A stretch of 64,000 nt of DNA, taken from positions 1-64,000 of the IMG/VR virus record IMGVR_UViG_3300044904_000300, one strand, 5' to 3'. Below, one piece after another: positions 7,922 to 33,845 of this stretch. This DNA is from a virus. How positions within the stretch are numbered: the first letter of the stretch is position 1; every line of letters begins with the position of its first letter. Below the pieces are notes generated by a model that searched no databases, was not told the DNA's origin, and saw only the letters and a program-made list of their open reading frames with translations. A program made the translations under genes and the position numbers.

Positions 7922-7950
7922 TTGACAACGGCAGAATGCTGTGTTATACT
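7922..7950 (+). promoter_or_regulatory. Sigma70-like promoter heading the tRNA region
   Basis: TTGACA-17 nt-TATACT. Confidence 0.8.
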
Positions 7951-16319: not shown

Positions 16320-16571
16320 ATGAGATTACTTACAAAGGATAGCGTTATCGTTCGTGCGGCGATGGATAGTCGGGTTTGGCGCTCGTCGGAGCGGTACCGC
16401 GCACAGCAGGACGTCGAGGCTGTGCGGGCTCATCTGGAGACCATGGCCAAGCGTCTCGCAGTGCTTGATGCGGAGATTGCAGAAATCGATGCATTTCTCA
16501 GAGGCGAGGGATTTTCGGTCGCGGAGCTTGCTGATGATTCTGTGCAGCGGCTCATGTCTGATAGTAGATAG
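16320..16571 (+). CDS. Hypothetical coiled-coil protein
   Basis: ATG 16320 follows the promoter TTGACA-17-GATACT. Confidence 0.55.
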   Translation: MRLLTKDSVIVRAAMDSRVWRSSERYRAQQDVEAVRAHLETMAKRLAVLDAEIAEIDAFLRGEGFSVAELADDSVQRLMSDSR

Positions 16572-16577
16572 TTTAGT

Positions 16578-16652
16578 CGGGGAATAGCCAAGTGGTATGG
16601 CGTTCGGTTTGGGACCGAAAAATCGGGGGTTCGAACCCCTCTTCCCCGACCA
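16578..16652 (+). tRNA. tRNA-Pro(TGG)
   Basis: CGGGGAA/TTCCCCG acceptor; TTCGG-TTTGGGA-CCGAA; ACCA. Confidence 0.92.
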
Positions 16653-16672
16653 CCTTTTCATGGGAGTGTGCT

Positions 16673-16879
16673 GTGAGTAATGTATCATCTTCGTCTAGTG
16701 CCGGAATGGGTCTTGGAGGTTGGTTGACAGTCTTGTTCGTCGGCCTCAAGCTGACCCACTGCATCGACTGGTCCTGGTGGTGGGTGCTGTCTCCTCTGTG
16801 GATTACAGCGGGGTTTGTTCTCGCGTTTATGCTCATCCTTCTTCTCATCATGATCGTTGCGGCGATTGCGGGGAAGTAA
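16673..16879 (+). CDS. Small membrane protein
   Basis: L..LF..LKLT..IDWSWWWVLSPLWI motif. Confidence 0.7.
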   Translation: MSNVSSSSSAGMGLGGWLTVLFVGLKLTHCIDWSWWWVLSPLWITAGFVLAFMLILLLIMIVAAIAGK

Positions 16880-16881
16880 GT

Positions 16882-17253
16882 ATGGAAGATACGAACTTCA
16901 TTCAGGTGGTGGACGATACCAAGAAGGAACCGGAGTCTGTATTGACTGTGACTCCTGGCGAGGGCACGGTGTTGCTTACTTCACCAAATGACGAGAAGAT
17001 GGTGTATGACATCATCGACACGGAGCACCCAGAAAACAACGCGGTGGTGGACCCTGATGCGATAAGCAAGCCGGTTGAAGTGACCCGTGAGGAAGCGTTC
17101 CAACGAGCAGCTCATGCAGCACGGATTCTGTTGGCGGAACGGATCAATAAGCGCCGGGAGAAAGAGAACCTCCGAGCGATGAAGGGACGAATCACCAAGC
17201 GCCGGAAGAAGAACACGCTGGAGAAAGCCAGCAGGAAGCGAAACCGAGGATAG
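16882..17253 (+). CDS. Hypothetical protein with basic C-terminus
   Basis: ATG 16882; C-terminus RITKRRKKNTLEKASRKRNR. Confidence 0.6.
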   Translation: MEDTNFIQVVDDTKKEPESVLTVTPGEGTVLLTSPNDEKMVYDIIDTEHPENNAVVDPDAISKPVEVTREEAFQRAAHAARILLAERINKRREKENLRAMKGRITKRRKKNTLEKASRKRNRG

Positions 17254-17254
17254 C

Positions 17255-17407
17255 ATGTTCCGTTGGCTGTGCGTATTCGGTTGGCACCGGTGGGTATCGT
17301 TCATTCCGCGTCATCGTATTTGCGAGCGCTGCTTTCGGGCTGAGCATTTGGTGTTCTACTCCGACCGCACACAAAGTTGGGTGAAAGACGACGAGCCGGT
17401 AAAGTAG
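17255..17407 (+). CDS. Small Cys/His peptide (DUF1660-like pattern)
   Basis: SD GAGGA; LCVFGWHRW...ICERC. Confidence 0.5.
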   Translation: MFRWLCVFGWHRWVSFIPRHRICERCFRAEHLVFYSDRTQSWVKDDEPVK

Positions 17408-17448
17408 TCGTATATATACCTAGTGCGCGGCAGGCGCTGCGAGGGTTT

Positions 17449-17525
17449 GGGCGAGTGACGTAACTGGCAAACGTGCGTGGCTTAGAACCACGATTTTAAG
17501 GGTTCGACTCCCTTGTCGCCCACCA
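17449..17525 (+). tRNA. tRNA-Leu(TAG), short variable loop
   Basis: CGTGG-CTTAGAA-CCACG; V-loop ATTTT; ACCA. Confidence 0.82.
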
Positions 17526-17535
17526 TTTTTAGAGT

Positions 17536-17609
17536 GCCGGATTCGATTATTGGTAGGTCCGCGGTTTTTCAGGCCGCCGAAGTCGGTTCGATCCCGACAT
17601 CCGGTACCA
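17536..17609 (+). tRNA. tRNA-Glu(TTC)
   Basis: GCGGT-TTTTCAG-GCCGC; GTCGG-TTCGATC-CCGAC; ACCA. Confidence 0.8.
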
Positions 17610-17619
17610 TATTTTTTAC

Positions 17620-17648
17620 TTGACATTCATCGCACGAAGAGCTATACT
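17620..17648 (+). promoter_or_regulatory. Sigma70-like promoter for the large ncRNA
   Basis: TTGACA-17 nt-TATACT. Confidence 0.8.
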
Positions 17649-17668
17649 GTATATCTCTTTGCGAGGAA

Positions 17669-18018
17669 TTTGACAACTGAATAATAGGACCCTGGCTGAA
17701 AACCTCGTTCTACGGGGGTAAGGCGACTCGCACAAGGGGGTGTGGGGGCACATATGGGGGCACCGAGGATAGCGTATCTGGCGGCCGTGCTAGATCAACC
17801 CTGATAGGGCACGGACAAGCGGGTAGTTAGCTGGTAGCTTATACTTTAAAGTATCAGTAGACGGCGGGCTTGAAGGTCAAATCCTTCCGTTATGCAGATC
17901 GTTTGGAACGTGCTTGCAAGCGTTTCAGACGGGAGTAACGTGGCGTAATACATTCAGAGTGCTTAAGAAAGTTTCGGGATCGATGTGGTTCCGAGGGTCC
18001 TATTATTCAGTTGTCGAA
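17669..18018 (+). ncRNA. Candidate large structured ncRNA (~350 nt)
   Basis: 24-bp terminal helix 17669-17692/17995-18018 with one G.U; no ORF of 60 aa or more inside; own promoter. Confidence 0.7.
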
Positions 18019-18024
18019 GAGGTT

Positions 18025-18124
18025 GGGAAACGAGCGGCACTAACGCTAAACGTCGGGTGTCCGTAGCGTTCGAGCGACACCTAGGCTGGTCCGGCTTGCC
18101 CGGAATGCAGCTTGCTCGTTTCCC
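18025..18124 (+). ncRNA. Pseudoknotted RNA element upstream of the vWA gene
   Basis: 11-bp closing stem plus crossing helices AACGCTA/TAGCGTT and GGTGTC/GACACC. Confidence 0.5.
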
Positions 18125-18147
18125 TACTTTCATTTCTGGAGAATCAC

Positions 18148-18849
18148 ATGAAGAATCTGATGGATATTACGTTCATCTTGGACCGTAGCGGAAGCATGTC
18201 GTCCATGAGGAACGACGTGATTGGTGGGTATGAGTCGTTCGTGAAGAAGCAGCGTGAGGAACGGGGAGATTGCGTGTTTTCTCTCGTTCAGTTTGACGAC
18301 CAGTATGAGACACCGTTTACCGCGGTGCCCATCCAGCATGTCAGCCCGAAGTTGGATTATTCCCCCCGCGGCAGCACGGCGCTTCGTGACGCGATTGGTC
18401 GGACGATCAACGCGGTTGGAGAACGTCTCCGCAGATTGAAAGAGCGGGATCGCCCGAGCAAGGTGATTATCGTAGTCATGACGGACGGGGAAGAAAACGC
18501 ATCGCACGAGTTCACTCAGCCGCAGATTAAGGACATGGTCAAGCACCAGTCCGACCAGTATCAGTGGGAATTCCTGTTCCTGGGTGCGAACATCGATTCG
18601 TTCCATGTTGCGGGAAGCTATGGTGTGCCGTCCTGGGCAACATCAAACTACACCTACACCAGTGGTGGACTCCGCGCGGTGTTTGATACTGTATCGTGTT
18701 ACGCATCGTCCGCACGAAATGGTGAGCAGTTCAACGGTACGTTGTCTGCTTGTCAGTTGAGCAACGAAGCGAAGCAGGATGCGAATAAGACGGGAACGTT
18801 TGTGTCGGGAACGCAGCCGTCAACGCCGACCGTGGCTTCGAAAATCTAA
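18148..18849 (+). CDS. von Willebrand factor A domain protein
   Basis: MIDAS motif ILDRSGSM, G.TAL.DAI, VVMTDGEEN.S; SD GGAG. Confidence 0.88.
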   Translation: MKNLMDITFILDRSGSMSSMRNDVIGGYESFVKKQREERGDCVFSLVQFDDQYETPFTAVPIQHVSPKLDYSPRGSTALRDAIGRTINAVGERLRRLKERDRPSKVIIVVMTDGEENASHEFTQPQIKDMVKHQSDQYQWEFLFLGANIDSFHVAGSYGVPSWATSNYTYTSGGLRAVFDTVSCYASSARNGEQFNGTLSACQLSNEAKQDANKTGTFVSGTQPSTPTVASKI

Positions 18850-18855
18850 GATTGT

Positions 18856-18930
18856 TGCAGGTTGGCCGAGCGATTAGGCAGCGTCCTCATAAGGCGTGCA
18901 AGATGGGTCTGACTCCCATACCTGCGACCA
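18856..18930 (+). tRNA. tRNA-Met/Ile2(CAT)
   Basis: GCGTC-CTCATAA-GGCGT; ACCA; T1.G72. Confidence 0.82.
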
Positions 18931-18937
18931 TCGTATT

Positions 18938-19316
18938 CGCGGGGGGGTGACGCGCATCTACACTACACGGGCCTGTATGCGCTAATATGACAGAGTGAAC
19001 CCGGGTTATTCTACGGAGTAGCGACGGGAAGTAAGTCTGTTGTTACCTCTTGCGAACCCAGGTTGTCAGCGGTACGCCGATAGCGGCCGCTACGCGCAAT
19101 AGCTTGAACCTTGAATGGTTCCCCTGATTGTTAGTTTGATGGTGGCCGGTAAAAGCTGGCGTATCCCAAACTATTGCCGCTGACAATTCAGTTTGCCGGA
19201 CAGAGCGAATAAGCATCCATCCTCTATGTGTGTTATTCTAGACACCAACCGCACACAACGATGTGAGTGATTTCCGCCTGGCACCCCATTAGCCTCCGCG
19301 TGAAGGGGTTTGCCGG
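18938..19316 (+). ncRNA. Candidate structured ncRNA between two CAT tRNAs
   Basis: Helices TTGTCAGCGG/CCGCTGACAA, TAGTTTG/CAAACTA, GCGCAT/ATGCGC and CGCGGGG/CTCCGCG; no credible ORF. Confidence 0.55.
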
Positions 19317-19327
19317 CATCTATTTTG

Positions 19328-19399
19328 ACCAGGGAATGCCAGTGCAATGTGAGTCTCATAAGCTCACTCTAGTAGGCGCAACTCCTACCCCTGGCACCA
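19328..19399 (+). tRNA. tRNA-Met/Ile2(CAT) with truncated D-arm
   Basis: TGAGT-CTCATAA-GCTCA; D-arm reduced to TGC-CAGT-GCA; A1.C72 mismatch; ACCA. Confidence 0.7.
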
Positions 19400-19439
19400 T
19401 TTCTACGTAGAATGCAGGGTCGCTCCCTGCAACCATTTC

Positions 19440-19517
19440 CCCTGCGTAGCCCAATTGGCAGCGGCGCGGAACTTAAAATCCCGTCCAGTGCTAGTTCGAA
19501 TCTAGCCGCAGGGACCA
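19440..19517 (+). tRNA. tRNA-Leu(TAA), short variable loop
   Basis: CCCTGCG/CGCAGGG acceptor; loop CTTAAAA; V-loop TCCAGT; ACCA. Confidence 0.82.
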
Positions 19518-23895: not shown

Positions 23896-23969
23896 GCGGG
23901 CGTAACATAAAAGTAATGCGCGGGCTTGCCAAGTCCGACAAGTGGGAGCGTTACCCATCGCCCGCTCCA
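23896..23969 (+). tRNA. tRNA-Gly(GCC), atypical T-loop AGCGTTA
   Basis: GCGGGCG/CGCCCGC acceptor; CGGGC-TTGCCAA-GTCCG; U73-CCA. Confidence 0.87.
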
Positions 23970-27283: not shown

Positions 27284-27691
27284 ATGAAAGCAACGCAGTG
27301 GAAGCAACGAAAGTGTGTCGGGGATGGGTGGATGCGAGAGTTGGTTCTTCCGTTCCTTACGATGGTTGAAGCAGCATGTCCTGATGTTGAAATCAACGAT
27401 ATTAAAGAGAAGTTCGGCACGCTCCGCATTTATGCGGCAGGCCCCGAATGGTTGTTTAACGTTGAACGAGTGTTTGAAAGTGCATCCGAGCAGTGTTGTG
27501 AGGATTGCGGACTTTGGCACGGGGAATATGACGACCGCACAAACAAGTATGCCATCGTCGCAGAGGGTCCGATTTTTCCCGATGGAGGTTGGATCAAAAC
27601 GTTGTGTTATACATGTCGGGACATCCGACAGAAGGAAGACGAGCGTAAGTTAGCGGAGAGTAAGTTAGCGGAAAGCGGGGGCGTGGCGTAA
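27284..27691 (+). CDS. Hypothetical protein
   Basis: GDGW..L....IKEKFGTLR.Y....CEDCG....W.KTLC..C. Confidence 0.7.
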   Translation: MKATQWKQRKCVGDGWMRELVLPFLTMVEAACPDVEINDIKEKFGTLRIYAAGPEWLFNVERVFESASEQCCEDCGLWHGEYDDRTNKYAIVAEGPIFPDGGWIKTLCYTCRDIRQKEDERKLAESKLAESGGVA

Positions 27692-27750
27692 CAGTAGCGC
27701 ACGGGGCCTTGGACCCTGGGGATGTGGTGCGACTCCACAAGCCTCCGCCA
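27677..27750 (+). tRNA. tRNA-Gln(TTG), atypical
   Basis: CGGGG-CCTTGGA-CCCTG (C33); TGTGG-TGCGACT-CCACA; GCCA; G7.A66 mismatch. Confidence 0.7.
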
Positions 27751-27764
27751 TACACATCTTGTGT

Positions 27765-27892
27765 GGGTCTGTAGCTCAGGTCCGGTTAGAGCATCTATGT
27801 ATTCCGAAATGGATACTAGTTTTGAGACAGGAACGCCCAATTGATAAGTGACTTGTAGAAGGTCGGTGGTTCAAATCCACCCAGACCCAGCA
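27765..27892 (+). tRNA. Ile-like tRNA with 56 nt replacing the 7-nt anticodon loop; 3' end GCA
   Basis: GGGTCTG/CAGACCC acceptor, canonical D- and T-arms, anticodon stem TCTAT (27794-98)/GTAGA (27855-59). Confidence 0.7.
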
Positions 27893-32964: not shown

Positions 32965-33504
32965 ATGGAAATAGCAGCTTGTAAATGTGGGGTGTGTGGA
33001 GCGGAATTTGAACGACCGGCAAAAGAAGTCCGCCGGTGTGCTCGACGGGGTCTAAACACTTATTGCGGCACGAAATGCGCTTTGGTGGCCACGAAGCAAA
33101 ACCTTAAACGCGGAGGAAATCCGGATGCGTTGGTGCTTGCTCGGGCAGCCAGATGGGGTGTGCCCAACGAGTTCCGTGAGCATCTACGAAGAGCACGCTC
33201 GCACTCTAAGGTGCGCGGCCGCGAGTGTAACATCACCGAGGAACATCTACAAGAGGTTTGGTTGCAGCAACAAGGGAAATGTGCGTATACCGGCATAGCA
33301 CTTCTTAACCCAACGTCGCTAACAAAGGCCGAGGACCCCGGGTGCCGCGCCAGTCTTGACCGTATCGACTCGTCACTAGGGTATGTTATTGGTAATGTTC
33401 AGTTTATTTCTGTGATGATGAACTATGCCAAATCGTCCTTTACCGATGCCGAAGTAAAGAAATTTGTTGACGCCGTTCGTAAAGGGTGTTATAATTACTC
33501 TTGA
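32965..33504 (+). CDS. HNH-type endonuclease; contains the tmRNA promoter in its 3' end
   Basis: Q.GKCAYTG...SLDRIDSS.GY..GNVQF....N.AK; late promoter ATAAATA at 32943. Confidence 0.82.
   Translation: MEIAACKCGVCGAEFERPAKEVRRCARRGLNTYCGTKCALVATKQNLKRGGNPDALVLARAARWGVPNEFREHLRRARSHSKVRGRECNITEEHLQEVWLQQQGKCAYTGIALLNPTSLTKAEDPGCRASLDRIDSSLGYVIGNVQFISVMMNYAKSSFTDAEVKKFVDAVRKGCYNYS
33467..33495 (+). promoter_or_regulatory. Sigma70-like promoter of the tmRNA gene
   Basis: TTGACG-17 nt-TATAAT. Confidence 0.75.
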
Positions 33505-33845
33505 TAATTGATGACGTATTTGATGCGTCTCGCGGACCTCGGGGCAGTACCGAGCCGGTCCACCATAAAATAGCGCCGAACCTCAAAGGAGGTCACTGGG
33601 TAGCCAGACGGCGCGACAGAACGGGCCGGAAATAGATTCGACGGGAGATGACAGAGGATATCGAGGTTATCCGTCGAGCACCGACGTAAATCAGAGCAAA
33701 CACACAATTGACAACGAAATGTTGCCGATGGCTGCCTAAGAGCAGTCCGGGGTGTTGGCGTCGTACCCTGTCAAACAAAGCACGCTGCGCTAGATGGAAA
33801 CTCCTAGCTAGGGAAGCCGGCTCTCCTGAAGTTACAAACCGGCAT
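33502..33845 (+). ncRNA. ssrA: Circularly permuted (two-piece) tmRNA
   Basis: Acceptor piece ends GGAC-CTCGG-GGCAGTA-CCGAG-CCGGTCC-ACCA (33565); IVS 33566-33622; coding piece starts GGGCCGG-AAATAG-ATTCGAC (33623); G3:U70; tag GAC..GCT GCC TAA at 33710-33739. The outer ends are approximate. Confidence 0.9.

Follow-up and report, generated by a model that had tools for sequence, protein, structure and literature searches.

A putative structured RNA closed by a 25-bp helix in the tRNA island of an uncultivated T4-type phage

We describe an element in the tRNA island of an environmental phage which is very probably a real and conserved structured RNA. It was recognized at two loci: in the window, which is the whole stretch of 64,000 nt that was analyzed, and in L004, a locus on the IMG/VR contig 3300043174_000026 that was found via relatives of the vWA protein encoded next to the element. 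The best reading is that the two copies belong to a new and rare family of structured phage RNAs, with two members to date, that occupies the niche of ROOL and GOLLD. More specifically, we favor, with moderate confidence, a structured non-coding RNA gene of an undescribed family, in which a promoter would drive the synthesis of an RNA of around 350 nt that would be excised at its terminal helix (P1) and act in trans. The anatomy of the element, its conservation, its strand and its compensatory changes were observed on the two sequences. The coordinates of all features are collected in Table 1.

Table 1. Features of the structured element and of its neighborhood (positions in the window).
Feature	Position	Strand	Description
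tRNA-Leu(TAG)	17449-17525	+	ARAGORN, Rfam tRNA; also the upstream neighbor in L004
tRNA-Glu(TTC)	17536-17609	+	ARAGORN, Rfam tRNA
Sigma-70-type promoter	17620-17648	+	TTGACA-17-TATACT; 11/12 consensus positions
P1, 5' arm	17669-17693	+	Pairs with 17994-18018
Hairpin A	17695-17724	+	3-bp + 6-bp stem, UCU loop, flanks GAAAA and GUAA
Four GGGGG tracts	17714, 17736, 17744, 17756 (within 17714-17760, 47 nt)	+	Two are Shine-Dalgarno-like
Hairpin B	17727-17746	+	7-bp stem, loop AAGGGG (17734-17739)
16-codon frame AUG-UGA	17754-17804	+	Begins 5 nt past the third G5 tract; probably not coding
Central-domain closing helix, 5' strand	17758-17770	+	Pairs with 17952-17964; RNAalifold consensus
Long arm with internal loops	17771-17828	+	Apical loop CAACCCUGA (17796-17804) invariant
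Arm closed by GCUGGUA/UAUCAGU	17830-17858	+	U/A-rich tip
Variable three-way domain	17860-17946	+	Closed by ACG/CGU (17861-63/17944-46)
Hairpins in the three-way domain	17872-17887; 17899-17932 (long)	+	Palindrome UUGCAA (17914-17919) in the loop of the long hairpin
Central-domain closing helix, 3' strand	17952-17964	+	RNAalifold consensus
3' hairpin	17975-17993	+	8 bp (four G.U), 3-nt loop, stacked on P1
P1, 3' arm	17994-18018	+	Inverted repeat
Structured insertion, ~106 nt	18022-18127	+	14-bp closing stem; fold -50.9 kcal/mol, z -3.0
vWA (YegL-like) gene, 233 aa	18148-18849	+	Pfam VWA E 3.4e-07; phrog_7371 E 6.8e-60

The window is the start of a 136-kb record (IMGVR_UViG_3300044904_000300) estimated to be 75% complete. 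The source virus is a distant T4-type myovirus, uncultivated and derived from an environmental metagenome. Its record carries baseplate wedge and hub genes of the T4-like type, and its gp6 is around 33% identical to the gp6 of T4-like phages of Methylophilales, Pelagibacter and cyanobacteria; a search for kin via this baseplate protein gave no close relative in IMG/VR. ARAGORN identified 28 tRNA genes at 8.7-28.3 kb, to which Rfam adds a few. Three tRNA-like genes recognized by the Rfam model and missed by ARAGORN are located at 23896-23966, 27677-27747 and 27765-27889, and one of them is 125 nt long with a large insert. Equally absent from the ARAGORN output is a circularly permuted, two-piece tmRNA of the alpha type at 33463-33824 (Rfam tmRNA_permuted, 103.4 bits; alpha_tmRNA, 57.9 bits).

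The structured element lies inside the tRNA island, and its promoter begins 11 nt past tRNA-Glu. A consensus promoter had been claimed at this very position by an earlier note made on the DNA alone, and only one of its consensus positions deviates. Such promoters are found five times in the window and seven times in the 136-kb record, always on the + strand (TTGACA-N16-18-TATACT-type sites at 7922, 17620, 20460, 35160, 40432, 105678 and 125776); as judged from their sequences, the seven probably mark early transcription units. At the element, transcription is predicted to start near 17653-17656. The promoter of L004 reads TTGACA-17-TATATT, with both hexamers conserved and the spacer and the leader divergent.

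L004 is syntenic with the window and contains, in this order, tRNA-Leu(TAG), the promoter, a 336-nt copy of the element and the vWA gene, the latter encoding an ortholog with 67% protein identity. The element is 78% identical between the two loci over 356 nt and forms the longest alignable block of the region that they have in common. Its conservation matches that of the tRNAs (78-88%) and exceeds that of the flanking protein genes (65-73%). It is unevenly distributed: identity is above 90% in P1, in the 5' third and at the 3' end, and two arms and the three-way domain are variable. Between the RNA and the vWA gene, the window carries the 106-nt insertion, which is absent from L004 and single-copy in the record; from its sequence it looks like a lineage-specific addition and not a part of the conserved RNA. 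A U-rich run follows the 3' arm at this insertion. L004 is devoid of tRNA-Glu(TTC) between tRNA-Leu(TAG) and the promoter (L004 2593-2610), so that these two close phages differ by the gain or loss of one complete tRNA gene. Similarity between the loci ends at 18950, just past tRNA-Met. A second non-coding block, put forward in the earlier note at 18938-19316, could not be aligned with L004, and unlike the ~350-nt RNA it has no support from this homolog.

The strand of the element was evaluated by folding. The + strand folds with an energy of -146.6 kcal/mol as compared with -114.4 ± 5.4 kcal/mol for shuffled sequences (z -6.0), and the - strand with -99.1 kcal/mol (z -3.5), the + strand being 47 kcal/mol more stable. 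Base pairs were then counted on a trimmed alignment (A2) of the two sequences, window and L004. The consensus structure comprises 88 pairs. Of these, 12 are doubly compensated, 11 have a single altered base and form another standard pair, and none is broken; this count is flattered by the derivation of the structure from both sequences. Sliding the partners by 1-3 columns left 0-1 compensated pairs instead of 12. Because the consensus count is flattered, we performed an independent test in which only the window sequence was used to predict the structure, which was then mapped onto L004. On the + strand, this minimum-energy structure gave 10 compensated pairs, 12 pairs changed on one side and kept, and 16 broken pairs, most of which fall in the poorly aligned variable domain. 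On the - strand, the corresponding values were 4, 7 and 23. None of 100 column shuffles reached the 10 compensated pairs observed (2.8 ± 1.6, maximum 9), a comparison made on only two sequences, for which no formal covariation statistic of the R-scape type is possible. The fraction of kept pairs was 0.58, against 0.42 ± 0.05 in the column shuffles. The covariation among homologs that the earlier note had proposed as a check is thus present in the one homolog at hand; the nearly invariant 5' third is without covariation support either way. Together with many G.U pairs that occur on the + strand only, these data argue for a + strand RNA rather than a DNA cruciform.

The most conspicuous motif of the element is P1. 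Its arms constitute an inverted repeat of 25 nt, 96% complementary and separated by 300 nt, which is the sole near-perfect long-range inverted repeat in the 64-kb window. The 21-nt core of the arm occurs at only two sites in the window (0 expected in shuffles), and the element is single-copy in the whole record. On the + strand, P1 consists of 24 Watson-Crick pairs and one G.U pair. The helix and its single G.U are therefore as the earlier note had described them, but the length given there, 24 bp, falls short by one pair. In L004, 22 of 23 pairs of P1 are unchanged and the remaining one is doubly compensated (U-A to C-G); pairs are thus changed at 1/23 in P1 versus 22/65 in the other helices. 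Because the sequence of P1 is nearly invariant, we consider as a lead that something may read this sequence and not only the shape of the helix. RNase III accepts helices of about 20 bp, and P1, with 25 bp, exceeds the regular duplex of roughly at least 20 bp that is taken as its criterion. The conservation of the P1 sequence is not explained by RNase III recognition alone. No RNase III gene is encoded in the phage record.

Analysis of the two sequences with RNAalifold shows that P1 closes four branches: hairpin A, hairpin B, a central domain and the 3' hairpin. Hairpin A is nearly invariant between the window and L004, with one compensated closing pair, and hairpin B forms in L004 as well, with an identical loop, once the register is shifted by one base. 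On both strands of the window, the four G tracts of this region are the only case of four tracts of at least four G in a 70-nt span, and they are found in L004 as G5/G4/G4/G5. A G-quadruplex was considered as the minimum-energy state, and ViennaRNA with G-quadruplex terms does not choose it. The tract in the loop of hairpin B corresponds to AAGGGGGUG and, by its sequence, could form nine pairs with the canonical anti-Shine-Dalgarno, which we retain as a lead. The phage genes use ordinary ribosome-binding sites of the GGAG type, and the GGGG type was seen in 0/37 long genes of the window surveyed.

The central domain holds three arms. Its closing helix has 11 pairs; in L004, two of them are doubly compensated, three differ in one base only and none is broken. 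In the long arm, the inner stem CCGUGC/GCACGG is converted to CUGUGA/UCACAG in L004 through two compensated pairs, and the apical loop CAACCCUGA is identical while its flanks change. As another lead from the sequence, this loop could form a kissing interaction of 4 bp with the AAGGGG loop of hairpin B. The arm at 17830-17858 has its closing 7 bp invariant; its tip differs, with a 4-nt insertion in L004, and is a hairpin in both phages. Across the three-way domain the MAFFT alignment is unreliable, and the domain was folded separately in the window and in L004, which gave the same layout. A stem GAAGG/CCUUC is replaced by GGGAG/CUCCC in L004. The 3' hairpin contains one compensated pair, and its G.U pairs correspond to A.C mismatches on the - strand. 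Two palindromes, UUGCAA in an apical loop and CAUAUG in a junction (17752-57), are kept in the window and in L004. A canonical 11-nt tetraloop receptor was considered at UAUGG/CUUAAG and rejected, as L004 does not preserve it. The local hairpins named in the earlier note are all present in the minimum-energy fold, and two of them covary in L004. Its statement that the interior has no open reading frame of at least 60 aa also holds, none being found in 17694-17993; a 67-aa GTG frame (17985-18188) clips only the 3' end and crosses the 106-nt insertion that L004 lacks.

We then compared the element with described RNA families. A cmscan search of positions 16500-19500 against Rfam 15 (4227 families), run with permissive filters and a cutoff of E <= 10, yielded tRNAs and, beyond these, just two matches at chance level; at gathering thresholds, the whole window gave tRNAs and tmRNA only. 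There was no match at E <= 10 to ROOL, GOLLD, OLE, HEARO or raiA, nor to group I introns, RNase P, T-box, 6S, SRP or Y RNA. A resemblance of GUGGUUCCG to a T-box is seen by eye only and is accompanied by no model match. The tmRNA of the phage is the separate gene mentioned above, and Rfam has no tmRNA match at the element. A retron RNA is unlikely since the record, about 75% complete at 136 kb, has no RVT_1 match and thus no reverse transcriptase detected; the neighbor of the element is the vWA gene. Likewise, a Y-RNA particle is unlikely despite the adjoining vWA gene because no TROVE/Ro match exists in the record, and Rfam gave no match either. By every available test, all of them made on the sequence, the element is unrelated to ROOL and GOLLD. 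The earlier note had left the choice between a short member of the GOLLD or ROOL families and a new large phage RNA. The former option is not supported, as cmscan found neither family, while the latter fits: the element is discrete, conserved and strand-specific, lies behind a conserved promoter in a tRNA island, and belongs to no described family.

The element is also rare. A covariance model (R1), obtained from the full-length alignment of 364 columns after trimming the outer 10 bp of P1, matches the window and L004 only. It gave no match in 13 + 50 other whole viral records with a related vWA gene, in 80 metagenome loci, 57 GTDB genome loci and 14 pattern-match loci (151 loci in total), or in 5 whole MAGs; of these, 137/151 loci and all 63 records were reached through vWA homologs. 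Searching 50,697 GenBank phage records by blastn in distant mode yielded tRNA-Leu matches only, and the extra matches from exact-pattern scans of IMG/VR with conserved 16-21-mers fail model R1. In a complete scan of IMG/VR for the vWA family (527 stretches), L004 was the only close relative, the next being at most 53% identical. A metagenome scan with patterns from the vWA alignment gave relatives of at most 50% identity among the matches listed (at least 600). A larger protein collection contains 15 vWA proteins (P0002-P0016), carried on ENA, Logan and JGI contigs, which are 55-73% identical to the vWA protein of the window over the full alignment (A3) and 59-77% identical by best local match. 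A previous survey of IMG/VR for candidate structured RNAs retained only motifs seen in three or more distinct regions (PMC10690425), and a family of two members would therefore have been dropped.

From this anatomy we propose a pathway in which transcription, RNase III processing and action in trans are inferred steps. The host sigma-70 RNA polymerase would start early at the promoter and make the RNA of around 350 nt. Since no terminator follows the element in L004, the RNA most likely leads a polycistronic early transcript that would continue through the vWA gene, tRNA-Met and beyond. Host RNase III, which is specific for double strands, would cut P1 and free the RNA, as it frees the rRNAs from their precursors; by this analogy, excision at P1 by the host enzyme is probable. 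Once freed, the RNA would work in trans, as a folded particle binding a protein, the ribosome or its own copies. For excision at P1 and trans action the chances appear about even, and any one specific partner is, at best, improbable. A search for antisense targets in the rest of the phage genome revealed only chance-level complementarity of 10-13-mers. One doubtful elaboration, drawn by analogy, is that the element represents a third and smaller class of 'ornate' RNA of tRNA islands, forming an RNA-only particle. Such a particle might self-associate through the conserved palindromic loops UUGCAA and CAUAUG, as GOLLD, ROOL and OLE do, or might hold the host 30S subunit by means of exposed Shine-Dalgarno-like G tracts beside an AUG, with the nine possible anti-Shine-Dalgarno pairs of AAGGGGGUG.

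The main rival to a trans-acting RNA is that the element serves the vWA mRNA as a cis-acting 5' leader, working as a riboswitch-like sensor or as an element of stability or translation; we regard it as unlikely, yet deserving attention. The element fits the usual layout of riboswitches, in which a long structured leader stands between a promoter and a gene. The promoter-RNA-vWA order is common to both phages, and in L004 the vWA ATG lies 13 nt past P1 without a terminator between them. However, the unrelated 106-nt structured insertion separates the RNA from the vWA gene in the window, showing that the distance to the ribosome-binding site need not be fixed, and in neither phage does this site pair with P1. 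Moreover, neither an Rfam riboswitch match nor an alternative terminator/antiterminator pairing was found, and model R1 has 0 matches in the 63 other viral records and 151 loci, most of which bear vWA genes. We find it very unlikely that the element acts at the DNA level, either as a MITE with 25-bp terminal inverted repeats or as a protein-binding or recombination site. Arms that are almost invariant between the phages around a variable middle are the pattern expected of transposase-bound ends, and the earlier note had itself envisaged MITE ends with target-site duplications. Yet there is neither a second copy in the 136-kb record nor a target-site duplication flanking the element in the window or in L004, and both phages carry it at the same syntenic site. 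In addition, conservation in the 5' interior equals that of the arms, the conserved promoter points into the element, and the strand-specific compensatory changes and G.U pairs of the interior would be needless for a DNA element.

Just as little credence is given to a messenger for a 16-residue peptide, translated from a G-rich Shine-Dalgarno-like tract and with a structure of secondary importance. The AUG, the length of the frame and the stop are kept in both phages, with the G5/G4 tract 5 nt upstream of the AUG. Nevertheless, five codons differ between the window and L004, four of them with a change of residue, and most of the changed bases fall in pairs counted as kept; for these reasons we read the frame as non-coding. 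It spans 51 of the ~350 conserved nt, and its putative GGGG ribosome-binding site is of the type absent from the genes surveyed. Finally, that the element is a very divergent or reduced form of a known large RNA (ROOL, GOLLD, OLE, HEARO, RNase P, Y RNA or retron ncRNA) is scarcely credible. Its ends do pair as in RNase P RNA, Y RNA and retron ncRNA, and it shares with ROOL and GOLLD a niche near phage tRNA islands (Kretsch et al., 10.1101/2024.12.08.627333). Against this stand the Rfam searches, negative at E <= 10 with lax filters and at gathering thresholds over the whole window, and a length that is half that of ROOL. The record contains no reverse transcriptase and no Ro/TROVE protein, and the RNase P signature GGAAAGUCC is absent, as assessed by eye against its consensus.

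The favored reading, a trans-acting RNA of a new family, invites comparison with several known systems. Like ROOL and GOLLD, the element is phage-encoded, lies in or beside a tRNA island, has many helices for its size, and has no associated protein and no known function. It differs from them by the lack of any sequence or structure match, by its size (~330 nt versus ~580 and ~800 nt), by its 25-bp closing helix and by its source, a T4-like environmental phage here and phages of Lactobacillales or of the rumen there. Symmetric kissing contacts through palindromic loops join the copies of GOLLD and those of OLE (10.1101/2024.12.08.627333). The two palindromes conserved here may be their counterpart, a parallel drawn from sequence only.

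As regards P1, processing stems for RNase III bracket the 16S and 23S rRNAs and the T7 early mRNAs. The element resembles these by its long duplex flanking a stable RNA in what is predicted to be a polycistronic transcript; it differs from the T7 sites in that P1 is devoid of their typical internal loops and has an unusually conserved sequence. The tRNA cluster of T4 encodes the species 1 and 2 stable RNAs, of ~120-140 nt, which share a transcript with the tRNAs and are matured by the tRNA-processing route. As in that case, a non-tRNA RNA is found among the tRNA genes of a T4-type phage, with co-transcription predicted here, but the element is larger and no sequence relation is expected. The bacterial Y RNAs (YrlA, the partner of Ro/Rsr) provide another parallel, as their ends also pair into a long conserved stem. 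Ro60 ends in a vWA domain, and the gene next to the element likewise encodes one. The element is, however, about three times as large as a Y RNA, the neighboring vWA protein is of the 233-aa YegL type, and, as stated above, neither a TROVE/Ro gene nor an Rfam match points to this system.

Large structured RNAs without a protein partner are rare, and the phage examples, ROOL and GOLLD, are still without a known function. The weight of the present finding is limited by the two members and by an RNA known from its sequence alone. A much smaller RNA of the same niche, with a promoter, an excision helix and compact conserved loops, would be easier to work with in asking what such RNAs do in infection, be it the sequestration of ribosomes, tRNAs or defense proteins, or the assembly of particles. 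In this phage lineage, the structured RNA would add to an RNA toolkit of about 30 tRNAs, a permuted tmRNA and an RNA ligase.

A separate observation concerns the vWA gene. At least one tRNA gene is located within 1.5 kb of a YegL-like vWA gene in 21/81 viral loci (L174-L253; also L008, L013 and L017), and in several unrelated large phages this gene lies within dense tRNA arrays. This suggests a recurring link between YegL-like vWA proteins and phage tRNA islands. In GTDB, relatives of the vWA protein with 40-62% identity (L103-L159) come mostly from MAGs of Acidobacteriota (Pyrinomonadaceae, Acidobacteriaceae), Armatimonadota, Planctomycetota and Verrucomicrobiota. Such a distribution hints at a soil or freshwater setting, which is odd beside the alpha-type tmRNA taken as a clue to the host.
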